DNA of 64,000 bases from Chloroflexota bacterium (GCA_005880985.1 VBIQ01000008.1:64003-128002); one strand, 5' to 3'; positions 10,318-64,000 are shown, numbered from the stretch's first letter. A program made the numbers and translations. The notes: generated by a model not told the origin, from the letters alone.

Positions 10318-11250
10318 GTGCGGTGGGTGACCTTCCGGCGGGCGGATCACGTCGAGGACCGGGTCGGTCTGGTGGTCGGCGATCGCGTTCACGCGCTGCC
10401 TCCGCGCACCGCGCTGATCGACCTGCTCGGTGACGACGGCGAGCGCCTGTCACGCGCCGGCGAGCGCGCCGAGCATGAACCCGACCTGGTTCTGGTGCTG
10501 AGCGAGGTGCGACTGCGGCCGCCGATCACCAGACCGCCGTCGGTCCGCGACTTCTACGCCTTCGAGCAGCACGTGCGGACGGCTCGTCAGAGCCGCGGGT
10601 TGGAGATGGACCCTGACTGGTATGAGCTGCCGGTCTTCTACTTCACCAATCCGCATGCGATCTCGGCGGACGGTGATGACGTTGCCGTCCCGCCGGGTTG
10701 CGGCGAGCTCGACTACGAGCTGGAGGTCGCCGCGATCGTGGGACGCGGGGGCACCGACCTGGATCCTGATGAGGCAGAGCGTGCCATCGCCGGGTACTGC
10801 GTGATGAACGACTGGAGCGCGCGCGACCTGCAGCGACGCGAGATGAAGCTCAACCTGGGTCCCGCCAAGGGCAAGGACTTCGCTACCGGGCTGGGACCGT
10901 GGTTGGCGACGCCGGACGAGCTCGAGCCGGTGCGTTCCGGCGAGGCCTTCGATCTGGCGATGACCGCGTCGGTCAACGGCCGCGAGTACTCACGTGCGTC
11001 GCTGGCGGACGTGTACTGGAGTTTCGGTGAGATGATCGCCTATGCCTCACGAGGCACCCGCGTCGAGCCCGGGGATGTGATCGGGTCGGGGACGTGCGGC
11101 ACCGGCTGCATCCTCGAGCTGTCGCTGGTTCATGGCGGTGACGCGTACCCATGGCTGCAGCCCGGCGACCTGGTCGAGCTCTCGGTCGACCGCTTGGGAG
11201 CGCTGCGCAACCGGGTCGTGCCGGGGCCGCCGCTGCGCTCGCTGCGATGA
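10318..11250 (+). CDS. Fumarylacetoacetate hydrolase (FAH) family protein
   Basis: FAH-fold C-terminal domain signature (FYFTNPHAI...DYELEVAAIVG...GDVIGSGTCGTG...GDLVELSVDRLGAL). Confidence 0.85.
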   Translation: MRWVTFRRADHVEDRVGLVVGDRVHALPPRTALIDLLGDDGERLSRAGERAEHEPDLVLVLSEVRLRPPITRPPSVRDFYAFEQHVRTARQSRGLEMDPDWYELPVFYFTNPHAISADGDDVAVPPGCGELDYELEVAAIVGRGGTDLDPDEAERAIAGYCVMNDWSARDLQRREMKLNLGPAKGKDFATGLGPWLATPDELEPVRSGEAFDLAMTASVNGREYSRASLADVYWSFGEMIAYASRGTRVEPGDVIGSGTCGTGCILELSLVHGGDAYPWLQPGDLVELSVDRLGALRNRVVPGPPLRSLR

Positions 11251-11738
11251 CCGCCGGCGCGGCCGCGGATCTGCTGATGCGCCTCGACGCGGTGGAGGCT
11301 CGCCTGGCATCGCTCGCGGTCGAGTCGGTTGGCGGGCTGACCGACGCCGACCCCGCAACCGGTGAGCGCTGGGATGCGGGACAGGTGTGGGCGCATCTGG
11401 CGGAGTTTCCCGGCTACTGGCTGGGGCAGGCCCGTCTGGTGGTGGAGAGATGGCGGGACGAGCCGGTTCCCTTCGGCCGGGTCAAGACCGATCCCGAGCG
11501 GCTGGCCGCCATCGAGAACGAGCGGATGGCGGCTCCTTCGCTCCTGTTGGATCGCGTGCATGCGCAGCTCGACGCGCTGCGGAGCTGGCTGCGCGAACTG
11601 CCCGGGGACGCCTGGGACGCGGTGGGGTTGCACGTCAGGCTCGGTGAGATGGGGCTGGCCCGCACCCTGGACGAGTTCGTGGTCGGCCACCTCGAGGAGC
11701 ACGCCGCCCAGCTCGAAGGGATGGCGGGACGCGGCTGA
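11247..11738 (+). CDS. DinB_2 / mycothiol-dependent maleylpyruvate isomerase N-terminal-like domain protein
   Basis: About 160-aa helical protein with DinB/MDMPI-like features (WDAGQVWAHLAEF...VVGHLEEHAAQLE); ATG overlaps the FAH stop (ATGA). Confidence 0.55.
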   Translation: MTAGAAADLLMRLDAVEARLASLAVESVGGLTDADPATGERWDAGQVWAHLAEFPGYWLGQARLVVERWRDEPVPFGRVKTDPERLAAIENERMAAPSLLLDRVHAQLDALRSWLRELPGDAWDAVGLHVRLGEMGLARTLDEFVVGHLEEHAAQLEGMAGRG

Positions 11739-11749
11739 GCGGCACTCCA

Positions 11750-11926
11750 TCACGACTCCAGGCGTTCGCGGAGCTCGGCGCTCAGGCAGGCGGGACACGC
11801 GGGAGCGCCGCCACCGCGGATCGAGCACTCCGCGCTCAGATGACCGTCGTACAGCCGGGCGGGGCTCGGGCGGGTCTCGGTGTGGTGGGGGCGCACCCGG
11901 GCGGGATTGCCGGCCCCCTCGGGCAT
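11750..11926 (-). CDS. Small hypothetical Cys-containing protein (58 aa) downstream of pgl
   Basis: High GC3 codon bias; C-x10-C-x2-C (ECSIRGGGAPACPAC); no recognisable family. Confidence 0.25.
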   Translation of the reverse strand: MPEGAGNPARVRPHHTETRPSPARLYDGHLSAECSIRGGGAPACPACLSAELRERLES

Positions 11927-11958
11927 GAACGGCTGGCGGGCGGGGTCGGGGCGAGGAC

Positions 11959-13754: not shown

Positions 13755-15356
13755 CTACAGGCGGCGCCAGGCGCGGCCGTCGCCGGCGATGAAGTCGTGC
13801 GCCTCGCGCGGTCCCCAGGTTCCCGCTTCGTAGTTGGGGAACTGAGCCGGATCGGGAGGGTGGGTGCGCCAGGCGTCGAGGATGGCGGTGCAGACCCGCC
13901 AGGCCTCCTCCACCTCGTCTTCGCGGGCGAACAGGGTGGCGTCGCCGAGCATGCAGTCGAGCAGCAACCGCTCGTACGCGTCCGGCGAGGCGCCGAGGAA
14001 GGAGCTGCCGTAGAGGAAGTCCATCGAGACGCTGCGGATGCGCATCGTCTGGCCGGGCACCTTGGCGGCGAAGCGGAGGGTGATGCCCTCGTCGGGCTGG
14101 ATGCGGAGGATCAGCCAGTTGGGTTCGATCGTCCCGCCGACCACGGACGAGCGCGGGCTGTCGAACGGGCTGTGGGGGACGCGCCGGAACTGGACGGCGA
14201 TCTCGGTGGCGCGCCGCGGGAGCCGTTTGCCGGTGCGCAGGTAGAAGGGCGTCGTCGCCCATCGCCAGTTGTCGACATCGAGCTTGAGGGCGACGAAGGT
14301 CTCGCGCAGCGACTGCTCGGGAACACCCTCCTCCTCGCGGTATCCGGGGACGCGCTCGCCGTCGATCCAGCCGGGGCCGTACTCGCCTCGGACGGTGCGC
14401 GCGAGCGCGTCCTCCGGGGCAATGGGACGGATGGCGCGCAGCAGCTTGACCTTCTCGTCGCGCACCGTCTCGGCGGCGAAGTCGGCCGGCGCCTCCATAC
14501 CGACGAGCGCGACCAGCTGCATGATGTGGTTCTGCACGATGTCGCGCAGCGCCCCCGACTCCTCGTAGTAGTTGCCGCGCCCTTCGACACCGAGCGACTC
14601 CGCCACCGTGATCTGGACGTGATCGATGTACTGGCGGTTCCAGATCGGCTCGAAGATGCCGTTGGCGAAGCGGAACACCATCAGGTTCTGGACTGTCTCC
14701 TTGCCCAGGTAGTGGTCGATGCGGTAGATCTGGTCCTCGTTGAAGCTGCGGTGGAGCTCCTCGGTGAGGGTGCGAGCGGTGGCGAGGTCGCGGCCGAACG
14801 GCTTCTCGACCACCAGGTGGACATAGGCGCCGGGGCTGTCCGCGGCACGGTTGAGGCCCTCCTCGCCGAGCCGGGTGGCGACCCGGCCGATGCCGCTCGG
14901 GGGGATGCTGAGATAGAAGAGTCGGTTGCCGCCGGTGCCGCGGTCGCGATCGCACTCGGCCAGCACCTGTTTCAGCGCCTCGAAACCGCCCTCGGCTTGG
15001 AAGTCGACGACGGCGTAGCGCAGGCCCTGGGCGAAGCCGCTCCAGACATCGTCGCGGAGCTCGACGCGGCCGTACTTCTCCACCCCCTCCCGCATCGCGG
15101 CGCGGAACGCGTCGTCCGACATCTCGGTGCGGCCGGCGCCGACCACACTGGTGCTCGAGGGGAGCAGGCCGTCGGAGGCCAGGGCGTAGAGAGCGGGGAC
15201 GAGCTTGCGCTGAGTGAGGTCGCCGCTGGCGCCGAAGATCACGACCGCACAGGGCAGCGGGGTGCGCTGCTGCCGAACCCCCTCGCGAAGCGGGTTGACC
15301 TCCTGCTCTGGTGGCGCCTGCGTCTGCACCGGTGCCGACGCTCCGTCGGGAGCCAC
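13755..15356 (-). CDS. zwf: Glucose-6-phosphate 1-dehydrogenase
   Basis: Rossmann GASGDLT motif, RIDHYLGKE active-site motif, full-length 533 aa. Confidence 0.95.
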   Translation of the reverse strand: MAPDGASAPVQTQAPPEQEVNPLREGVRQQRTPLPCAVVIFGASGDLTQRKLVPALYALASDGLLPSSTSVVGAGRTEMSDDAFRAAMREGVEKYGRVELRDDVWSGFAQGLRYAVVDFQAEGGFEALKQVLAECDRDRGTGGNRLFYLSIPPSGIGRVATRLGEEGLNRAADSPGAYVHLVVEKPFGRDLATARTLTEELHRSFNEDQIYRIDHYLGKETVQNLMVFRFANGIFEPIWNRQYIDHVQITVAESLGVEGRGNYYEESGALRDIVQNHIMQLVALVGMEAPADFAAETVRDEKVKLLRAIRPIAPEDALARTVRGEYGPGWIDGERVPGYREEEGVPEQSLRETFVALKLDVDNWRWATTPFYLRTGKRLPRRATEIAVQFRRVPHSPFDSPRSSVVGGTIEPNWLILRIQPDEGITLRFAAKVPGQTMRIRSVSMDFLYGSSFLGASPDAYERLLLDCMLGDATLFAREDEVEEAWRVCTAILDAWRTHPPDPAQFPNYEAGTWGPREAHDFIAGDGRAWRRL

Positions 15357-51890: not shown

Positions 51891-54713
51891 TCAATGGCCC
51901 CGGCGTTCGAGACGGACCTGGCCGGAACGCCGGGCCACGGACGCTGCCAGCTGCACCCGCGAGCTGACGCCGAGCTTGGTGAAGACGTGGGAGAGGTGGG
52001 TCTCCACGGTGCGGCGGGAGACGAAGAGGCGCGCTCCGATCTCGGGGTTGGTGAGCCCCTGGGCGGCGAGCCGTACCACCTCGCGCTCGGCGGGGGTCAG
52101 GCTCTCCCAGCCGTGCGCGGCGCGGGCATGGCGGCCGCGCGGCCCCGGATGGGCGCCCAGCTCTCGCAGCATCGCCGCCGCCTCCGCCTCGTCGCGACGT
52201 GCCCCGATGCGTCCGAAGATCGACCGCGCCTCCTCGGCCATGGCGACGGCTTCGTCGCGCCGGTCCCTGGCCGCGAGCACCGTGGCGGCGTCGCGACAGG
52301 TGGCCGCCAGGTCCACCCGGCGCGGGGTGCTCAGGTACGCGTCCACCGCGCGTTGCATCAGTGACGGGTCGCGCTCGGCCAGGCCGCGGCAGCGCAGCGC
52401 CGCCGCCCGGGCGCTCGGGATCATGGCGCGGGCCGCCGTGCGGTCGACGGCGGTCAGCACCCGCCCGACCAGGGCCCGGTCCGCGGTCGACCCCGAGAGC
52501 CGGATCAGCGGCGGCCCCAGCATCAGCTGGACCGAGAGGGCCTCCAGCGCCGTGGCGCACAACCACCCCCTCTGCACGATCTCCAGGGCCCGGTCGCGCT
52601 CGCCTCGCGCCTCCGCGAGCGCAGCCTGGGCCATCGCCAGCCACTCCCACCCGAATTCACGGGGCTCGTCGGTGCCGAAGGCGCGCTCGGCGTGGCGGAG
52701 GTGGGCGGTGGCGCCGTCGAGCTCGTCGCGGTGGACGGCGATCAGTGCGAGCCGGGCGAGGATGTGGGGCACCGACCAGCGCGTTTCCACCTGCTCAGCG
52801 ACGAGCAGGCCGGCCTCGAGCTCGGCGACGGCATCGTCCCACGCCCCCACGAGGAAGTCGGCGTGGGCCTGGACCGGGTCGTGGAGGGCGAGATGCCAGC
52901 TTCGCTCGCCCTGGTTTGCGGTTCGACGGCTCGCCGCCAGCGCCTGGCGGGCCTCGTCGATGCGGCCCGCCTCCGCCAGCAGCCATCCGTGCCAGACGTG
53001 CGGGGTGCGGCCGAGCGTCTCGTCCCCGCCCGCCTGGGCGAGGGCCACGGCCCGGGCGGAGAGCTCGACCGCCTTGGCCGTGTAGCCGCGGCCGGCGGCG
53101 GTGATCGACAGCGCCAGCAGGCCGGTGGACACCGCCCGGGCGTCGCGGACCCCCGCCCCGATGAGCACCGCCGTCTCGGCGGCGCGAGAGGCGCCGGGCA
53201 GATCGCAGCCCAGGGCAAGCACCAGAGCGGCCTGGGCCAGCAGCTGGGCCCGTCGCGGCTCCGGGGTCTCGTCGCGCGCCGCGATCAGCGAGAACTGCTC
53301 TGCCGCCTCCTGCCAGCGCCCCAGGAAGGCCAGGGCGCGGGCCAGCACCAGCCGGGCCCTTTCCTCGGGGCCGCCCGGTGCCGCTCCCTCCAGCAGGGCG
53401 CGCGCCGCCAGCTCGCCCTCGCGGGGCCTGCCCGCCCAGACCAGGACGTCGGCCTCGTCGAGCCGCAGCGCCCGCTGGTCGCGGTAGCCGGTGCCGGCCA
53501 GCCGTGAGGCGCTGGCGATCAGCTCGCGGGCGGCCGCGGGTGCCTGGGCCGACGCCTCAAGTGCCGCCTGGCGCAGCCAGCCGACGGTCTCCTCGTCACC
53601 CGGCTCGGCTCCCAAGGCCAGCTGGGTCGCAACCCGCCAGGCCGGGGCGTGGCGGGCAGCCAGGGCACGCCCCGCTTGGAGGTGGAGGGCGGTGCGCAAC
53701 GGGGGTGGCTGCTCCAGGTAGACGAGCTCGCGGACCACCGGGTGCCGGAAGGCATAGCGTTCGCCCTTCTCGACGATCAGGCCGAGACGGGCCGCCTCCT
53801 CGAGCGCCGGGGCCAGCTCGACGGCAGGCGTGGCGAGCACCGCCGCCAGGTCATCGACGGGGAAGCTCGAACCCAGCAGCGAGGCCGCCTTGAGAACCGC
53901 GAGATGCTGGCGATCGAGGGTTCGCAGCCGCCGGCGCATCAGCCCGCGAAGGCGTCGAGGCAGCGTGGGCCTGCCCATCAGCTCGGCAACCCCGTCGGCG
54001 ACCTCGACGGCACCGTCGTCGCGCAGGCCGTTGACCAGCTCGGTGACCAGCAGCGGGTCGCCGCCGGCGCCCAAAACCTGTTCCAGCAGGCGAGGACCCG
54101 GCTCGGTGCCGACCATCACCCGCACCAGGTCCACCACCGCGGCCGCGTCGAGTGGCGCCAGCTCGATGATCGTCGCCCCCGCGCTGCCGGCGGCGGCCGC
54201 GAACGCGGCCAGCTCCGGGGACGGCGCCGAGGCTCGGAAGGCAGCGAGGATGAGAAGCCGCCTGGCCTCCGCCCGTCTCCCCAAGCGGTCCAGCGCCAGC
54301 AGGGTGCCGGGGTCGGCCCGGTCGAGGTCGTCGAGGGCGATGGCCACCGCGGCGCGACCCGCCAGGCGGTCGACGTGAGCGATCAGGCCGTTGATGAGCC
54401 GGGCGCGCCCGGCCTCCGACCCCGGGGACCGATCGGCGAGCCCGGCGAGGGTCGGGTCGCCGGCTGCGTCCGCGACGCCCAGGGCGTCGAGCAGCGCCCC
54501 ACAGGGGCGGCCCGCCTCGGCCACGCCGGCGCCGGCGGAGAAGACCTGGCAGCCGCATCGCCTGGCCTCGGCGACGCCCTCCTCGAGCAGGCGGGTCTTG
54601 CCCACGCCGGGCTCTCCCTCGATGAGCACCATCTGGCCGCGCCCGGTGCCGGCGTCGGCGACCGCGCCGCGGAGAATGGCCATCTCGCGGTCACGGCCCA
54701 GCAAGGCCTGCAT
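51891..54713 (-). CDS. Large ATP-binding LuxR-family transcriptional regulator (AAA+/STAND-like NTPase, TPR-like middle region, C-terminal LuxR HTH)
   Basis: Walker A (IEGEPGVGKTRLLEE); long helical repeat region; C-terminal LuxR HTH (LTPAEREVVRLAAQGLTNPEIGARLFVSRRTVETHLSHVFTKLGV). Confidence 0.9.
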   Translation of the reverse strand: MQALLGRDREMAILRGAVADAGTGRGQMVLIEGEPGVGKTRLLEEGVAEARRCGCQVFSAGAGVAEAGRPCGALLDALGVADAAGDPTLAGLADRSPGSEAGRARLINGLIAHVDRLAGRAAVAIALDDLDRADPGTLLALDRLGRRAEARRLLILAAFRASAPSPELAAFAAAAGSAGATIIELAPLDAAAVVDLVRVMVGTEPGPRLLEQVLGAGGDPLLVTELVNGLRDDGAVEVADGVAELMGRPTLPRRLRGLMRRRLRTLDRQHLAVLKAASLLGSSFPVDDLAAVLATPAVELAPALEEAARLGLIVEKGERYAFRHPVVRELVYLEQPPPLRTALHLQAGRALAARHAPAWRVATQLALGAEPGDEETVGWLRQAALEASAQAPAAARELIASASRLAGTGYRDQRALRLDEADVLVWAGRPREGELAARALLEGAAPGGPEERARLVLARALAFLGRWQEAAEQFSLIAARDETPEPRRAQLLAQAALVLALGCDLPGASRAAETAVLIGAGVRDARAVSTGLLALSITAAGRGYTAKAVELSARAVALAQAGGDETLGRTPHVWHGWLLAEAGRIDEARQALAASRRTANQGERSWHLALHDPVQAHADFLVGAWDDAVAELEAGLLVAEQVETRWSVPHILARLALIAVHRDELDGATAHLRHAERAFGTDEPREFGWEWLAMAQAALAEARGERDRALEIVQRGWLCATALEALSVQLMLGPPLIRLSGSTADRALVGRVLTAVDRTAARAMIPSARAAALRCRGLAERDPSLMQRAVDAYLSTPRRVDLAATCRDAATVLAARDRRDEAVAMAEEARSIFGRIGARRDEAEAAAMLRELGAHPGPRGRHARAAHGWESLTPAEREVVRLAAQGLTNPEIGARLFVSRRTVETHLSHVFTKLGVSSRVQLAASVARRSGQVRLERRGH

Positions 54714-55722: not shown

Positions 55723-56496
55723 GTGACCAACCATGCTCGTGCCGGCTGCGCGACCGCGCTGGTGCTCGCGACCGGCATCGTCGCCGGCTGCGGCGGTTCG
55801 GCGGGCGCGCTGTCAGCGCCACCAGCACAACCGCCGTCGGCCTCGCCCTCCGGGCCGGCTCCGTCGGGCGTCCCCGCGACCGCTGAACCATCAAGCGCGT
55901 CGTTCACCGTCGCCGTCCGTCCCTTTCACGAGCCGGGCGATTTCGCCCACCGCAACTACTGCGGATCGGGCGCCACCGAGGTGCTGCTGTCGGCGTGGAT
56001 CGCCGAGCTCCCCGACCTCGAGACCGTGGCCCGGCGCGCCCACCTGGATCCGCGGAGCGGCCAGACCGGCGCCGACACCACCGCCGGCATCAACTCGTTC
56101 ATCGACCCGCTTGTCACCCCCGCCCTCGGACGCAGCTGGTACCGGCCCGACCATGTCACCGGCATCGCCGCGCTGGAGGCACGGCTGCGCGCCGACCTCG
56201 GCAGCACCCAGGCGCGGCGCCTCTTCGGCCATGCCGTGCCGGTGATGGTGCAGACCATGACCAAGACCATGCCCGGCTGGCGCGGCTGGCAGGCGACCCA
56301 CATGATCACCGTCTCGGCCGCCGACCTCGGTCCCGGCGACCCTGGCCTGGACACCGTGACCTACGCCGAGACGCCGTCGGCGCTGGCGGGGTACCGGGGC
56401 CCCGACTTCCAGACGATGACGGTGGCGGCCCTCTGGCAGGCGATGCACGCCTTCCTGGCCGACGACCCCTCAGATCCGGTCAACGTCATCTGGTGA
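55723..56496 (+). CDS. Lipoprotein of unknown function
   Basis: Signal peptide plus lipobox ([11 protein letters not shown]), Pro/Ser-rich linker, about 190-aa globular domain with no recognised motifs; immediately upstream of the hybrid kinase. Confidence 0.6.
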
Positions 56497-56548
56497 CGTT
56501 ACCGACGAGTTGGTGGAGTTTGGCTTCTGAGGTAGTACATTCCCCCCG

Positions 56549-59500
56549 TTGACCGTCCGGCGGCCGCTGGGGGGAGCGCCGCCGACACTGGGCGCCGCCC
56601 ACGAGGGGACCATGCCGACTGCTACGTCGCCGCCAGACACCTTGGACGCCCGGGTACTCCTGGGCGTCCTCACCAAGCTCAAGAAGGGCGACTTCACCGC
56701 CCGCATGCCGGAGGACTGGACCGGCATCGCGGGCAAGGTCGCCGACACCCTCAACGAAGTCATCGAGACCAACCAGCGCCTCGGCCGAGAGCTCGATCGG
56801 GTGGGGCGGACGGTCGGCAAGCAGGGCAAGACCTCGCAGCGGCTCAACCTCGGTGAGGTGGGCGGCGGATGGGCCACCGCCGTCGACACGGTCAACGAGC
56901 TGATCGAGGACCTGGTCCGGCCCACCAGCGACATGGCCCGGGTCATCGGCGCGGTCGCCAACGGCGACCTCAGCCAGACCATCCCACTCGAGGTCGACGG
57001 GCGGCCGCTCGAGGGACAGTTCCTGCGCACCGCGAAGACGGTCAACACCATGGTGTCGCAGCTGGACTCCTTCGCGGCCGAGGTCACCCGGGTGGCGGGC
57101 GAGGTGGGCACCGAGGGGAAGCTGGGTGGCCAGGCGCGCGTCCGCGGCGTCGGCGGCGTCTGGAAGGACCTGACCGACAACGTCAACTCGATGGCCGGCA
57201 ACCTCACCGCCCAGGTGCGCAACATCGCCGAGGTCACCACCGCGGTGGCGCGAGGCGATCTCTCCAAGAAGATCACCGTCGACGTGCGCGGTGAGATCCT
57301 CGAGCTGAAGAACACCATCAACGTGATGGTCGACCAGCTCAACGGCTTCGCCTCGGAGGTCACCCGCGTGGCCCGCGAGGTCGGCAGCGAAGGCAAGCTC
57401 GGCGGCCAGGCCAAGGTCGAGGGCGTGGGCGGCGTCTGGAAGGACCTGACCGACAACGTCAACATGATGGCCGGCAACCTGACCGGACAGGTGCGCAACA
57501 TCGCCGAGGTCACCACCGCGGTGGCCAACGGCGACCTCTCCAAGAAGATCACCGTCGACGTGCGTGGTGAGATCCTCGAGCTGAAGAACACCGTCAACGT
57601 CATGGTCGACCAGCTCAACGCCTTCGCCTCCGAGGTCACCCGCGTCGCCCGCGAGGTCGGCAGCGAGGGCAAGCTGGGCGGCCAGGCGGACGTCCGTGGC
57701 GTTGCCGGCGTCTGGAAGGACCTGACCGACAACGTCAACATGATGGCCGGCAACCTGACCGGCCAGGTGCGCAACATCGCCGAGGTCACCACCGCGGTGG
57801 CCAACGGCGACCTCTCCAAGAAGATCACCGTCGACGTGCGTGGTGAGATCCTCGAGCTCAAGGACACCATCAACGTGATGGTCGACCAGCTCAACGACTT
57901 CGCCTCCGAGGTCACCCGCGTGGCCCGCGAGGTCGGCAGCGAGGGCAAGCTGGGCGGACAGGCGGAGGTGCGCGGCGTCGGCGGCGTCTGGAAGGACCTC
58001 ACCGACAACGTCAACTTCATGGCGTCCAACCTCACCGGCCAGGTGCGCAACATCGCCGATGTGACCACCGCGGTGGCCAACGGCGACCTGTCCAAGAAGA
58101 TCACCGTCGACGTGCGCGGCGAGATCCTCGAGCTGAAGAACACCATCAACACCATGCTCGACCAGCTCAACGCCTTCGCCTCCGAGGTCACCCGCGTCGC
58201 CCGCGAGGTCGGCAGCGAGGGCAAGCTGGGCGGACAGGCGGAAGTCCGCGGCGTCGGCGGCGTCTGGAAGGACCTCACCGACAACGTCAACTTCATGGCG
58301 TCCAACCTCACCGGCCAGGTGCGCAACATCGCCGAGGTCACCACCGCGGTGGCCAACGGCGACCTCTCCAAGAAGATCACCGTCGACGTGCGTGGCGAGA
58401 TCCTCGAGCTCAAGGACACCATCAACGTGATGGTCGACCAGCTCAACGACTTCGCCTCGGAGGTCACCCGCGTGGCCCGCGAGGTCGGCAGCGAGGGCAA
58501 CCTGGGCGGACAGGCGGAGGTCCGCGGCGTCGGCGGCGTCTGGAAGGACCTCACCGACAACGTCAACTTCATGGCGTCCAACCTCACCGGCCAGGTGCGC
58601 AACATCGCCGACGTGACCACCGCGGTGGCCAACGGCGACCTCTCCAAGAAGATCACCGTCGACGTGCGCGGTGAGATCCTCGAGCTCAAGAACACCATCA
58701 ACGTGATGGTCGATCAACTCAACGCCTTCGCCTCCGAGGTCACCCGCGTCGCCCGCGAGGTCGGCACCGACGGCAAGCTGGGCGGCCAGGCCCAGGTGCG
58801 CGGCGTCGGCGGCGTCTGGAAGGACCTGACCGACAACGTCAACTTCATGGCATCGAACCTGACGGGCCAGGTGCGCAACATCGCCGAGGTGACCACCGCG
58901 GTGGCCAACGGCGACCTGTCCAAGAAGATCACCGTCGATGTGCGCGGTGAGCTGCTGGAGCTCAAGAACACCATCAACGTGATGGTCGATCAGCTCAACA
59001 ACTTCGCCTCGGAGGTGACCCGCGTCGCCCGCGAGGTCGGCAGCGACGGCAAGCTGGGCGGCCAGGCCCAGGTGCGCGGCGTGGCCGGCGTCTGGAAGGA
59101 CCTGACCGACAACGTCAACATGATGGCCGGCAACCTCACCGACCAGGTGCGAGGCATCGCCCGGGTCGTGACCGCGGTGGCCGACGGCGATCTGAAGCGC
59201 AAGCTCATCGTCGAGGCCAAGGGCGAGGTCGCCGCGCTCGCCGACACCATCAACAACATGACCGACACCCTGGCCACCTTCGCCGATCAGGTGACCACGG
59301 TGGCCCGCGAGGTCGGTGTTGAAGGCAAGCTGGGCGGTCAGGCGAACGTGCCCGGCGCCGCCGGCACCTGGCGCGACCTCACCGACAACGTCAACCAGCT
59401 GGCGGCCAATCTCACCACCCAGGTGCGGGCGATCGCCGACGTCGCCATCGCCGTCACCGAAGGCGACCTCACCCGGTCGATCGCGGTCGTGGCGAGCGGC

Positions 59501-62320
59501 GAGGTCGCCGTCCTCAAGGACAACGTCAACGCGATGATCCGCAACCTGCGTGAAACCACGCAGCGCAACACCGAGCAGGACTGGTTGAAGACCAACCTGG
59601 CTCGCTTCACCCGCATGCTCCAGGGCCAGCGCGACCTGCTGACGGTTTCGCGCCTCATCCTCTCCGAGCTGGCCCCCCTGGTCGGCGCCCAGCACGGCGT
59701 CTTCTACACCATCGACGGCCAGAACGGGAGCGCGAGTCTTCGCTTCATGGCCGGCTACGGGTACAAGGAGCGCAAGCACCTCGCCAACGAGTTCAGACTG
59801 GGCGAGGGCCTGATCGGCCAGTGTGCGCTCGAGAAGGAGCGCATCCTGCTCACCAACGTCCCCGACGACTACATCAGAATCAGTTCCGGGCTCGGCGAGG
59901 CCAAGCCCCTCAACATCGTCACCCTTCCCGTCGTCTTCGAGGGTTCGGTGCGTGCGGTGGTGGAGCTGGCCTCGTTCGAGCGTTTCAGCGTGGCCCATCT
60001 CGACTTCCTCGACCAGCTGACCGAGAGCATCGGCATCGTCATCAATACCATCGAGGCGACGATGCGCACCGAGTCGCTGCTCGAGCAGTCGCAGCGGCTC
60101 GCCCAGGAGCTGCAGAGCCAGCAGGACGAGCTGCAGCAGACCAATGACGAGCTCGCCGAGAAGGCGCGGCTGCTGGCGGAGCAGAACGCCGAGGTCGAGC
60201 GCAAGAACGCCGAGGTCGAGGCCGCCAAGCTTTCACTGGAGGAGAAGGCCGCCCAGCTGGCGCTCACCTCCAAGTACAAGTCCGAGTTCCTGGCCAACAT
60301 GTCGCACGAGCTACGGACGCCGCTGAACAGCCTGCTCATCCTGGCCGAGCAACTCGCCCAGAACCCGCAGGAGAACCTGTCGCCCGAGCAGGTGGAGTAC
60401 GCGACCATCATCCGCTCGTCGGGCAACGACCTGCTCAACCTGATCAATGACATCCTCGACCTGTCCAAGATCGAGTCGGGCACGGTGGCGCTCGACGTCA
60501 CCCGGGAACGCTTCACCGACCTGCGTGACTTCTGCGAGCGCGCCTTCCGTCATGTCGCCGAGGCTCAGGCACTCGACTTCGCCGTCGAGGTCGATGCGCG
60601 GCTACCCGAGGCCATCCTCACCGATCCCAAGCGCTTGCAGCAGATCCTCCGCAACCTGCTCTCCAACGCCTTCAAGTTCACCGAGAAGGGATCGGTGAAG
60701 ACACGCTTCCGCCTGGCGGACGGTGGCTGGAGCCCCGACGAGACCGTGCTCACCCGAGCGGGGCAGGTGGTGGCGGTCGACGTGGTCGACACCGGCATCG
60801 GCATTCCCAAGGATCGCCAGCGCCACATCTTCGAGGCGTTCCAGCAGGCGGATGGCACCACCAGCCGCCGCTATGGCGGCACCGGACTAGGACTGTCCAT
60901 CAGCCGCGAGCTGGCGCGGTTGCTCGAGGGCGAGATCATCGTCGACAGCGAACCGGGCCGGGGAAGCACCTTCACGGTCTATCTCCCCATCAGCCGGATG
61001 GTGTCGATCACCGGTCCCGTCCCCCACACCATCGAGAGCACCGTGCCGGCGCCGGTGGTCGAGGCTCTCACCGACGGTGACGGCGCCGCCGCGACCCGTC
61101 CGGGAATCGTGGCGATACGCGATGACCGCTACGCGATCGAACCGGGCGATCGGGTGGTGCTGATCGTCGAGGACGACGCCAACTTCGCCCGGGTGCTAGC
61201 CGACCTCGCTCACGAACGCGGTTTGCGAGCGGTGGTGGCGACTCACGGAGGTGAGGCGCTCCAGCTCGCCAAGGAGTTCGGCGCCGACGCCATCACCCTG
61301 GACCTGCTGCTCCAGGACGTCAGCGGCTGGACGGTGCTCGACCAGCTCCAGCACGATCCCGTCACCAAGCACATTCCCGTCCACATCGTCAGCGTCCAGG
61401 ACGAGGGCGACCGGGGGGTGGTCGAGGGCGCCTCGACGGTGCTCACCAAGCCCGCCCACCGCGACGAGCTGCAGGCTCTCTTCGCCCGCATCGAGGAGGC
61501 CATCGAGAAGCGCGTCAAGCACCTGCTTGTGATCGAGGACGATTCCGTGCAGCGGCAGACCATCGTCGACCTGCTGTACAACGGCCACACCACCGTCCGT
61601 GGTGCCGGCAGCGGTGAGAACGCCTTGCAGGCGATGCGCGAGCAGCACTTCGACTGCGTGGTCCTCGATCTCGGTCTTCCCGACACCAACGGCTTCGACC
61701 TGCTCGAGAAGATGAAGGGGGAGCCGAGCCTGCGCAGTGTGCCGGTGGTCGTCTACACGGCGGGCGATCTCGCTCGCAAGGACGAGACGCGCCTGCGCCG
61801 CCTGGCCCGCAGCATCGTGCTGAAGGAGGTCCGATCTCCGGAGCGGCTGCTCGAGGAGGTGAACCGGCTGCTGCAGCGGGTCGCGGTCCCGGTTCCGGTG
61901 GGAGCCGACGGCGGCGAGCCTGAGGAGGCGGGCACCGATGCCAAGCTGGCCGGCAGGAAGGTGCTCATCGTCGATGACGACGTGCGCAACATCTTTGCCC
62001 TCACCGCTGCCCTGGAGCGTCACGGGCTCGAGGTGGTGGCGGCGGAGAGTGGGCGCGATGCCGTCGAGCTGATCCGCTCGGACCGGACCATCGACATCGC
62101 CCTGATCGACGTGATGATGCCGGAATTCGACGGCTACGAGACGATGCGCGCCGTGCGAGAGGTCACGGACCTCAAGGACTTCCCGATGCTGGCGGTCACC
62201 GCCAAGGCGATGAAGGGTGACCGTGACAAGTGCCTGGAGGCCGGTGCCAACGACTACATCCCCAAACCAGTCGACACCAGCACCCTGCTCTCGATGCTGC
62301 GGGTATGGCTGCGTCGCTGA
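56549..62320 (+). CDS. Cytoplasmic poly-HAMP hybrid sensor histidine kinase: about 20 HAMP domains, GAF, coiled coil, HisKA, HATPase_c, three receiver domains (start TTG 56549 or ATG 56612)
   Basis: No TM segment; nine tandem 92-aa di-HAMP units (...[92 protein letters not shown]...); GAF at about aa 1010-1170; H-box [12 protein letters not shown]; G-box [14 protein letters not shown]; three REC domains with intact Asp/Thr/Lys. Confidence 0.9.
57080..59563 (+). repeat. Tandem 276-bp coding repeats (7 near-identical plus 2 degenerate) encoding the di-HAMP units
   Basis: Unit boundaries 57080, 57356, 57632, 57908, 58184, 58460, 58736, 59012, 59288; roughly 90% or more nucleotide identity between the first seven units, judged by eye. 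Confidence 0.85.
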
Positions 62321-63174
62321 CCGCGGGGGCCGCGAGCGCGGCGCCGCCGCAGACGGCGGAGACGCTCCTCGAGCTGGAGACCGACCTGCTCTTCGAGGGC
62401 ATCCGCCGGCGCTACGGCTACGACTTTGGCGCCTACTCCCGCGAGTCGTTGCAGCGGCGGTTGCAGGCGAGGATGAAGGCGGAAGGAGTGCTCACCCTCT
62501 CGGCGCTGCAAGAGGCGGTGCTCCACGACAGCGCCTGCATGCACCGCCTGCTGCGCGCCATCTCGGTGCCCGCGACGGCGCTCTTCCGCGATCCCGGGCT
62601 CTTCGCGAGCATCCGGGAGGACGTGATCCCGCTGCTGCGGACGTGGCCCTGGTTGCGTATCTGGCATGCCGGCTGCGCCAGCGGCGAGGAGCCCTACTCG
62701 ATGGCCATCCTGCTGGCCGAGGAAGGGCTGCTGGCGCGGACATCGATCTATGCCACCGATGTCAATGACGAGCTGCTGACCCGGGCAGCGTCGGGCAGGC
62801 TGACGGCGAGCAAGCTGGCCGCTTCGCGGCAGGCGCATCACGACGCCGGCGGCGCGCGCCCGCTCGACGAGCACCTGATCGTCGACGGCACCGGCGCACG
62901 ACTGAGACCGGAATTGCTGGAGCGCATCACCTGGGCCCAGCACGACCTGGTGAGCGACACCGGCTTCAACGATTTCCACCTGATCATCTGCGCCAACGTG
63001 CTGATCTACTTCACCCCGCCCTTCCGCGAGCGGATCCACCGGCTGCTCTATGAGAGCCTGGTGCCGTTCGGGTTTCTCGGCCTCGGTGAGCGCGAGTTGA
63101 TCGCCGCGCACCCGCCGACACCGCGGTACCGCCCGGTGCCGCAGGCCAACCGGCTGTACAAGAAGGTGGCCTGA
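62305..63174 (+). CDS. cheR: CheR-type protein-glutamate O-methyltransferase
   Basis: CheR N-terminal all-alpha domain and SAM-binding motifs ([35 protein letters not shown]); overlaps the kinase 3' end by 16 nt. Confidence 0.85.
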
Positions 63175-64000
63175 TGCCTCGCGACGCCCGCGCCAGCATC
63201 CTGGTGGTGGACGACAATCCCAACAAGCTGTTTGCCCTGGAGACGGTGCTGGCCCCGCTCGGCCAGCGGGTGGTGCGTGCCTCGTCAGGGCGCGAAGCGC
63301 TGCGTCGCCTGCTCCACGAGGACTACGCCGTCGTCCTGCTCGACGTGCGGATGACGGAGATGGATGGTTTCGAGACCGCCGAGCTGATCCGCCAGCGGCA
63401 GCGTTCGGAGCGCACCCCGATCATCTTCGTCACCGCCTTCGCCCAGGCGGAGGCCGATATGGCTCGTGGCTACTCGCTGGGCGCGGTGGACTTCGTCTTC
63501 TCTCCGATCGTGCCCGAGGTGCTCCGCAACAAGGTCTCGGTCTTCGTCGACCTGCACAAGAAGTCCGAGGAGGTCAGGCGGCAGAGCGATCGTCTGCGAC
63601 GCCTCGAGGAGCTGGAGCATCAGCGCCGCCTGGAGCGGGCGGAGAGCGGTCGCCGCCAGGCGGAAGCCCGCTTCGCCACCATGCTGGACATCGCCGGTGA
63701 CGCCATCATCGCGGTCGAGGACGACTGGCGGATCGTCCTCTTCAACAAGGCGGCAGAGCGCACCTTCGGGCAGAGTGCGGAGGCCACCATCGGCCATCGG
63801 CTCGACGAGCTGATCGTGCACGGCTTGGAGGGGATGCTGCCGGTCGGGGTCGAGCATCCCGTCAACGGCGTCCGTCACGAGGTGCGGGGCCGGCGGCCCG
63901 ACGGGAGCGAATTCCCCGCCGAGGTCAGCGTGGCACGCACCGACGCCGGCGACAGGGCCGTGTTCACCGTGATCCTGCGCGACATCACCGAGCGTCGCGA
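63174..64000 (+). CDS. Response-regulator receiver plus coiled coil plus PAS domain protein; the 3' end lies outside the window
   Basis: REC (ILVVDDNP...[15 protein letters not shown]...VTAF...), coiled coil, PAS ([30 protein letters not shown]); ATG overlaps the cheR stop (TGATG); not in the ORF track because no stop occurs within the window. Confidence 0.8.

Follow-up and report, generated by a model that had tools for sequence, protein, structure and literature searches.

Gene content of the locus

Here, we analyzed a locus at the 3' end of a 64,000-nt stretch of DNA from a Chloroflexota bacterium (GCA_005880985.1 VBIQ01000008.1:64003-128002; the whole stretch is referred to as the window), where, within positions 55,723 to 64,000, a gene for a CheR-family methyltransferase lies between the genes for two histidine kinases, named HK1 and HK2. 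HK1, CheR and HK2 form a three-gene operon: the start of CheR overlaps the stop of HK1 by 16 nt, which is found identically in the related locus L006, and HK2 begins within the CheR stop. The features of the operon are as follows.

56612..62320 (+), HK1, soluble poly-HAMP hybrid histidine kinase, 1902 aa from ATG 56612
56651..59584 (+), HAMP array of HK1, 21 domains, canonical and non-canonical alternating (Pfam, motif counting)
57069-59427, core of the array, 276-nt tandem repeat, 7.7-8.5 copies with 89-91% matches
59630..60043 (+), GAF domain of HK1, aa 1028-1165 (Pfam GAF_2 1.9e-19)
60068..60286 (+), heptad coiled coil of HK1 from GAF to H-box, aa 1174-1246, candidate methyl-accepting segment
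60278..60991 (+), HisKA (aa 1244-1311, phospho-acceptor His 1253) and HATPase_c (aa 1358-1481) of HK1 (Pfam)
61139..62299 (+), three receivers of HK1 with acceptor Asp D1582, D1704 and D1851 (Pfam)
62305..63174 (+), CheR-family methyltransferase, 289 aa (Pfam CheR_N 1.1e-11, CheR 3.8e-31)
63174..64000 (+), 5' part of HK2 (REC-PAS), running off the window, 1-nt overlap with the CheR stop

The maximal open reading frame (ORF) of HK1 (56549..62320, + strand) starts with TTG and encodes 1923 aa; ATG 56612, which agrees with the gene call on the near-identical contig L001, is the likely start. Pfam recognized HAMP/HAMP_2 in 19 stretches, GAF, HisKA, HATPase_c and three Response_reg domains, and counting of two alternating HAMP signature motifs gave 21 HAMP domains in a strict 92-aa di-HAMP period. 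Besides the acceptor Asp, Thr/Ser and Lys are retained in all three receivers as read from the sequence. No transmembrane segment was detected in HK1, the highest Kyte-Doolittle 19-residue mean being 1.51. A first-pass annotation of the window had described HK1 as a 1923-aa cytoplasmic kinase with about 20 HAMP domains, GAF, HisKA/HATPase and three intact receivers, coupled by 16-nt and 1-nt overlaps to a full-length CheR and a REC-PAS protein, and this description was borne out by the ORF coordinates and the domain analyses.

The PDB matches of CheR were 5ftw (best, 1e-25), 5xly and 1af7, i.e., the CheR structures of B. subtilis, P. aeruginosa and Salmonella, and the protein has the two-domain architecture of an all-alpha N-domain and a SAM (S-adenosylmethionine)-binding alpha/beta domain. 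The motifs GEEPYS, ATD (with the acidic post-I Asp), FRD (R98) and IYF (Y235) are retained, and the only change in the SAM-binding and catalytic motifs is from CRNV to CANV; the first-pass annotation had made its reading depend on the presence of the SAM-binding residues. The basic alpha2 helix is kept as well, including the equivalent of R53, which in enteric CheR faces the acidic methylation helix. Moreover, the ORF is intact and 100% identical in several independent assemblies. Judged by these sequence features, the protein is a member of the CheR family.

Searches of the whole 64 kb window by tblastn, using E. coli Tar, Tap, CheW, CheA, CheB, CheR and CheY as queries, detected no methyl-accepting chemotaxis protein (MCP), CheW, CheA-P5 or CheB catalytic domain; the sole matches were CheR and receiver and ATPase cross-matches. 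The absence of MCP, CheA and CheW, previously noted for the 8 kb upstream, thus extends to the entire window and to CheB. On the 3' side, a look-up of the identical CheR protein gave four contigs, of which 10 kb downstream of CheR were examined. The complete HK2 is a REC-PAS-GAF-HisKA-HATPase protein of 707 aa, followed by genes that encode, among others, a Big_5 protein, an HTH protein, a radical-SAM enzyme and a hydrolase, and no MCP, CheA, CheW or CheB was found in these 10 kb: where the first-pass annotation had considered an ordinary chemotaxis cluster, a second kinase is encoded instead. Since the defining MCP-CheW-CheA core was searched for and is absent, the locus is not a chemosensory pathway.

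The length of the HAMP array is not the same in all assemblies. Contig L001 (5136-10016) carries 15 HAMP domains as compared to 21 in the window, i.e., three 276-nt di-HAMP units fewer, with a DNA identity of 96-99% and an identical CheR protein, which reflects either a real, rapid change of copy number or repeat collapse in assembly. The HAMP repeats also yield summed sub-threshold Pfam matches to SpoIIID (7e-11), Laminin_II, FliE and GatB_Yqey, with no single stretch passing; the 'partial SpoIIID/HTH' domains given for the kinases AskA and AskB (PMC7643160) may likewise be an artefact of the repeats instead of domains that bind DNA.

The base composition of the window is about 71% G+C, and scans for promoters and terminators gave no signal over the shuffled expectation. 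The operon is preceded, as annotated before, by a putative lipoprotein gene.

55723..56496 (+), putative lipoprotein, 257 aa, signal peptide and VAGC lipobox

This ORF has no Pfam or NCBIfam match and is separated from HK1 by 52-115 nt. It was found in L001 and is not present upstream of the cassette in L006 and L008; because it is absent beside related cassettes, the lipoprotein was rejected as a component of the system and is regarded as a neighbour outside the conserved cassette. Just upstream, on the opposite strand, a LuxR-type regulator of 940 aa is encoded (51891-54713, - strand; AAA_16 + GerE according to the Pfam annotation of the identical gene in L001).

Composition and distribution of the cassette

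A search with a profile of the CheR clade gave 80 loci from genomes sampled one per species, which were then probed by tblastn. A kinase of the HK1 type (GAF-HisKA-HATPase-REC) on the same strand ends at CheR in 74 of the 80 loci, which represent about 12 phyla, and two of the six loci without such a kinase lack upstream DNA. The loci stem from Cyanobacteriota, Gemmatimonadota, Acidobacteriota, Bacillota, Deinococcota, Alpha-, Beta- and Gammaproteobacteria, and additionally from Bacteroidota, Verrucomicrobiota, Planctomycetota, Desulfobacterota, Bdellovibrionota, Actinomycetota and others. A catalytic-only CheB follows next after CheR in 57 of the 75 loci with enough DNA, and a receiver-first gene, usually for a second kinase, comes next in 43/69. 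An MCP signalling domain within 10 kb was found in only two of the 80 loci, both times distant and on the opposite strand, and CheW or CheA P1/P5 within 10 kb in none. This agrees with the earlier claim that CheR is wired to a kinase operon and not to an MCP.

The sensory part of the CheR-linked kinases is variable: a poly-HAMP sensor is present in only 10/80. The N-termini of 52 kinases of other types carry CHASE3 (35), 4HB_MCP_1 (11), dCache_1 (3), TarH (2), NIT (1) or PAS (1), usually with a single HAMP, and the GAF-coil-kinase core is constant. The cassette therefore consists of a kinase with a variable sensor, GAF, an acidic heptad coil, HisKA/HATPase and two to three receivers, followed by CheR, usually CheB, and a receiver-first gene. 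The latter opens with a conserved receiver of the pattern LLDVQMPGMDGFE...GAVDYxxKP, which the window fits except for a change from Lys to Ser, and the architecture after this receiver varies between PAS-GAF-HK (histidine kinase), HK alone, GGDEF and REC alone.

Poly-HAMP kinases also occur without CheR. In Azospirillum lipoferum, R. etli and M. loti a poly-HAMP kinase is directly followed by a REC-kinase, and in a metagenome sample four poly-HAMP loci with CheR were found versus about 15 without it in which there would have been space for the gene. Thus, the two kinases of an Ask-like pair (see below) may or may not have CheR inserted between them, either alone or together with CheB. Because most poly-HAMP kinases sampled, apparently including the studied AskA/AskB type, lack CheR and most CheR-linked kinases are not of the poly-HAMP type, the constant partner of CheR is the kinase core and not the HAMP array; of the co-occurrence of CheR with poly-HAMP kinases that the first-pass annotation had proposed to examine, the link to the kinase stood, and the HAMP array as its constant feature did not. 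Two CheR-less poly-HAMP kinases adjoin a gene for a CheB-CheR fusion, located downstream on the opposite strand in L111 (4848-8433, - strand) and upstream in L155 (3579-5093).

In metagenome-assembled genomes of Limnocylindrales and Gaiellaceae a CheR homologue likewise occupies the position after a poly-HAMP kinase, and in the Gaiellaceae genome CheR is followed by a CheB catalytic domain of 200 aa and then by the REC-kinase. The cassette is found on plasmids as well: a plasmid of D. deserti VCD115 encodes a poly-HAMP kinase, CheR, REC-PAS-HK and then a diguanylate cyclase, with no CheB, and Agrobacterium plasmids encode kinase, CheR, CheB and REC-kinase. Among cultured bacteria, Rhizobium, Azospirillum, Mesorhizobium, Ensifer, Streptomyces and Deinococcus commonly carry poly-HAMP-GAF kinases on their plasmids and chromids (186 records). 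CheB-less variants were additionally seen in Deinococcus, Limnocylindrales, Eisenbacteria and Bacillota. A tree computed after exclusion of the coil places the window beside CheR-only cassettes of Limnocylindrales and Eisenbacteria genome bins and of a single metagenome contig without assignment, and this group is sister to the Deinococcus cassettes. The locus is hence a further example of a cassette found widely in public genomes, cultured strains included.

Variations were observed at the 3' side of the cassette. In L035 (8985-11429) and L047 (10774-12600) of Bacteroidota/Sericytochromatia the REC-kinase and the catalytic domain of CheB form a fusion protein, and a separate REC gene precedes CheB, resembling a split canonical CheB, in the Alcanivorax-type loci L044 and L076 (~10819-11935). 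In L031, L051, L078, L079, L088 and L128 the last gene, located after CheB, encodes REC-GGDEF in place of the REC-kinase, and in Deinococcus a sensor diguanylate cyclase follows HK2 (L089 10660-12348, L025 ~13755-14285). These gene contents hint at a cyclic di-GMP (c-di-GMP) output in part of the cassette family, which fits the biofilm phenotype of bmsA discussed below; no GGDEF gene adjoins the window locus.

A candidate methylation site in HK1 and its alternatives

All CheR-linked HK1 proteins carry a long heptad coil with acidic pairs between GAF and the H-box, with a consensus of approximately LQxQQEELxxxNEELEEQ…SEELLxxQQEELQQTNEELEEK, in which the heptad register would place Asn/Gln at position 'a', Leu at 'd' and the acidic pair at 'b' and 'c'. 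Of the 2882 ORFs in the loci with a length of at least 150 aa, 54 matched a regular expression for a heptad [EQ]E[LM] coil, and all 54 are HK1-type kinases. The same expression matched none of 35 HK2 proteins, and among the ORFs classified as 'other' 20/24 had no heptad coil, the two that passed the threshold being HK1-type kinases in rearranged loci. Moreover, three CheB-CheR fusions (S. meliloti, Leptolyngbya and Rhizobium plasmids) carry an N-E-E-L heptad coil in cis, e.g., ATEELRAANEELQSMNEEYRSTAEELETSKEELQSINEELQTVN; in these loci (L091 4362-7847, L092 4293-7241, L093 4353-8636) the coil lies about 200 aa after the CheR domain. The acidic N-E-E-L coil thus travels with CheR/CheB in two independent architectures. 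In HK1 of the window, the candidate glutamates would be those of the 'DEL' triplets starting at aa 1193 and 1200.

The coils of the poly-HAMP subfamily can be aligned without gaps to the H-box, and their two central doublets were compared. In kinases with CheR and CheB (n=10) the doublets are EE/EE throughout, with an extra SEELL unit, and in those with CheR but no CheB (n=9) they are [E5 D4][E6 Q3] and [E6 D3][E8 Q1], whereas in CheR-less kinases (n=15) they are [E5 R4 K3 T2 D1][E14 K1] and [E10 A2 …][Q7 E4 D2 …]. The mean count of EE-hydrophobic units is 3.8 with CheR and CheB, 1.6 with CheR only and about 0.6-0.9 without CheR. In the coil-free tree the presence of CheR changed several times. 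The trend of the doublets has the predicted direction and is suggestive, but not statistically secure, because it is confounded by clade structure.

The explanation that fits best overall, and for which we regard the case as evenly balanced, is that the locus is a CheB-less poly-HAMP cassette which CheR serves by methylating the HK1 coil as a set-point. CheR would be dedicated to the two-component module and not to chemoreceptors, and its substrate would be encoded in the cassette, most likely in the form of exposed glutamates of the GAF-to-DHp coil of HK1. We propose that neutralisation of their charge would alter the stability, register or rotation of the helix that relays the HAMP/GAF signal to the catalytic core, for which the helix-rotation model of HAMP/S-helix signalling discussed by Coles et al. 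(PMC13446029) offers an analogy. The altered coil would in turn shift the kinase/phosphatase balance of HK1, in parallel to the methylation helices of chemoreceptors, and phosphoryl groups would pass between the HK1 receivers and the receiver of HK2, by analogy with AskA Rec3 and AskC. As CheB is lacking and the acidic pairs are DE rather than EE, methylation in the clade of the window would serve as a slow or one-way set-point, or as a SAM-dependent input, and reversible adaptation would be expected in the CheB-containing relatives instead. The first-pass annotation had spoken of methylation-based adaptation of a non-chemoreceptor kinase as a mechanism that is not established, which agrees with the searchable literature; 'adaptation', however, is doubtful at the window locus because of the missing CheB. 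More generally, and with tentative, somewhat less than even confidence, HK1-type kinases may be 'methyl-accepting histidine kinases', in which CheR and CheB add and remove methyl groups on the Glu pairs of the coil.

Several observations weigh against coil methylation. Neither HK1 nor HK2 contains the strict MCP methylation consensus, the regular expression for which detects all four sites of Tar, so that a cryptic MCP-like methylation helix in the locus was rejected and the recognition motif would have to differ from that of chemoreceptors; of the Glu/Gln methylation heptads that the first-pass annotation had thought worth seeking, an acidic heptad coil is there in HK1 and the MCP type is not. 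The coil characterises the kinase family as a whole and persists in a degraded form in CheR-less relatives, and that of the window is the shortest and most degenerate among the CheR-linked kinases, with the pairs QE, DE, DE and AE and no EE. The association of the doublets with CheR gave p ~0.001 in a Mann-Whitney test, a value that is uncorrected, confounded by phylogeny and not to be taken at face value: the degraded doublets are concentrated in one large CheR-less clade, and the CheR-less lineages L096 and L107 retain EE_EE or EE_DE. Furthermore, CheB is absent from the contig family of the window, the CRNV motif of CheR is changed to CANV (Arg to Ala, 62989-63000), and the HK2 receiver (~63480-63510) has Ser (FSP) as compared to Lys (KP) in 44 orthologues. 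The searchable literature holds no methylation data for any member of the cassette, no CheR substrate other than chemoreceptors and no link of CheR to poly-HAMP kinases.

The changes last mentioned bear on an alternative for the CheB-less clade, namely that CheR is not a reversible modifier but either partners the kinases structurally or is left over from a CheR-CheB cassette and decaying. The Lys of the KP motif is likewise lost (FSP or FAP) in the other CheB-less poly-HAMP cassettes L025, L006 and L010, which suggests an altered HK2 receiver in the clade of the window, and with the missing CheB, the coil doublets degraded to DE/DQ and the change to CANV, the CheR of this clade may act in another way or be in the process of functional loss. 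On the other hand, the CheR ORF is intact and invariant across assemblies with its SAM-binding motifs kept, both Ala and Arg occur at the CRNV/CANV position in the alignment of cassette-linked CheR proteins (genome-scan pattern), and the CheR-only arrangement is stable across Chloroflexota, Eisenbacteria, Deinococcus and many Bacillota with EE-rich coils; we therefore regard this alternative as unlikely. That CheR methylates HK2 or a receiver domain appears distinctly unlikely: HK2 and CheR are coupled in translation, the receiver of HK2 has orthologues throughout the cassettes and CheB is fused to the REC-HK2 protein in some genomes (L035, L047), but HK2 has neither the heptad acidic coil nor the MCP consensus, and since the architecture after the receiver varies among cassettes, the receiver is its only constant candidate. 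The receiver fold is not known to be a CheR substrate.

An incidental operon position of a CheR that serves ordinary chemoreceptors encoded elsewhere would be compatible with its being a bona fide family member, and the search for MCPs covers the window and 10 kb downstream. This is nevertheless very unlikely in view of the linkage to the kinase in 74/80 genomes of about 12 phyla, the 16-nt HK1-CheR overlap shared by the window and L006, and the scarcity of MCP domains and lack of CheW and CheA near the 80 loci. Moreover, plasmids carry the cassette, as do many Bacteroidota and Deinococcus, which are generally held to be without flagellar chemotaxis. The poly-HAMP array, considered as a CheR substrate in the first-pass annotation, is helical and Glu-rich, more conspicuously so than any other part of HK1, and is encoded in the same operon; nonetheless, we consider it highly improbable as the site of methylation. 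CheR linkage is independent of poly-HAMP sensors, the other linked kinases having CHASE3, 4HB or Cache domains, most poly-HAMP kinases sampled (Azospirillum, R. etli, M. loti, about 15 metagenome loci) lack CheR, and the array holds no MCP-type methylation consensus. The HAMP array was thus rejected on distribution grounds.

CheR/CheB methylation is the textbook mechanism of sensory adaptation and, to our knowledge, has been demonstrated only on chemoreceptors. If CheR acts on a HisKA-type kinase, adaptation or set-point control would also be a property of some two-component systems. Methylation of the HK1 coil would then amount to a phosphorelay with chemotaxis-style memory or set-point that operates without MCP, CheW and CheA, of which the window would be the soluble, poly-HAMP, CheB-less form and whose acceptor module CheB-CheR fusion kinases would employ again in cis. 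It would further provide a handle on poly-HAMP kinases and explain the presence of CheR/CheB genes in non-motile bacteria, as well as the higher proportions of these genes reported for metagenome-assembled genomes (MiST 4.0). The comparative data give a specific candidate methyl-accepting segment in a histidine kinase, with residues to mutate, and the survey offers tractable carriers of the cassette, namely Deinococcus deserti VCD115 plasmid 2, the Agrobacterium pAt plasmids and the Pseudomonas bmsA cluster. The respective genes bear the locus tags DEIDE_RS15325/15330 in D. deserti and, for example, CFBP6625_26615-26600 on a pAt plasmid, and BmsA is available from P. alkylphenolica. Within the searchable literature, no publication addresses the function of CheR in these cassettes.

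Comparison with known systems

The top PDB matches of HK1 were 9trk (E 6.6e-124) and 9trj (2.2e-72), annotated as 'histidine kinase, Gcn4p', which correspond to the 6-HAMP and 4-HAMP segments of AskA from M. xanthus that appeared in 2026 (Coles et al., PMC13446029). AskA, AskB and AskC are interacting kinases that control Myxococcus development and respond to ambruticin, askC is located immediately downstream of askB, and the AskC receiver binds Rec3 of AskA (PMC7643160). Arrays of the kinase type consist of alternating non-canonical and canonical HAMPs that are amplified as di-HAMP units and precede GAF, DHp/CA and receivers (PMC13446029). Soluble poly-HAMP-GAF hybrid kinases are a described family, comprising AskA, AskB and Amb07 of Sorangium, the bacterial 'group III' (PMC7643160). 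Sequence comparison assigns HK1 to this AskA-type family: both share the soluble alternating HAMP array followed by GAF, DHp/CA and several receivers, and the N-terminal 283 aa of HK1 match the crystallised AskA constructs. The receiver-first second kinase immediately downstream is common to both systems as well, askC after askB and HK2 after HK1 with CheR interposed. Contrarily, CheR appears in neither of the two Ask papers (PMC7643160, PMC13446029), whereas here it lies between the kinases and is translationally coupled to both. Hence, the view of the locus as a candidate uncharacterised signalling system had to be narrowed: the kinase family is described and the BmsA cluster has been studied, while the methylation of a non-chemoreceptor kinase by CheR is not established in the searchable literature.

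Fungal group III kinases (Nik1/Os-1/TcsC) resemble HK1 in being soluble and in having an N-terminal run of HAMPs, a kinase and a receiver, as described in PMC7643160 and PMC11253588. They differ by fewer HAMPs, the lack of GAF, one receiver and the lack of CheR, and act via the HOG pathway.

With canonical chemosensory pathways, including Wsp and Frz, the window shares a CheR-family methyltransferase with intact motifs, and relatives of the cassette additionally share the CheB methylesterase and sensors such as 4HB_MCP, dCache, TarH, CHASE3 and HAMP; some of them end in REC-GGDEF, like WspR. Unlike these pathways, the window has no MCP signalling domain, CheW, CheA or MCP methylation-site consensus, its kinase is a HisKA-type hybrid, and the CheB of cassette relatives has no receiver domain. 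The CheB-CheR fusion kinases (CheB_methylest-CheR-coil-PAS-HK), presumably the proteins listed in KEGG as 'CheB/CheR fusion protein', resemble the cassette in combining an N-E-E-L heptad coil with CheB and CheR. In contrast to the cassette, they carry enzymes and coil in cis together with PAS domains and often other kinase types, and their CheR shows 27-30% identity to that of the window.

The neighbours CheR, CheB and hybrid kinase of the BmsA cluster of Pseudomonas are noted in PMC8175716, which also refers to a genetic study of the biofilm and motility phenotype of BmsA (Lee et al., 2016, as cited in PMC8175716); a methylation target of the cluster is not reported in the searchable literature. 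Loci of the BmsA type from Pseudomonas/Stutzerimonas were recovered in the survey (L029, L033, L038, L050, L060). BmsA and the window agree in the gene order, the GAF-acidic coil-HisKA-HATPase-REC core and the location of CheR directly downstream of the kinase. In contrast to the kinase of the window, which is soluble, carries 21 HAMPs and is not accompanied by CheB, BmsA is a membrane sensor that has CHASE3 and only one HAMP, and its cluster includes CheB. Taken together, the locus represents a form of the CheR/CheB-linked hybrid-kinase cluster known from bmsA in which CheB is missing and the sensor is of the poly-HAMP type.

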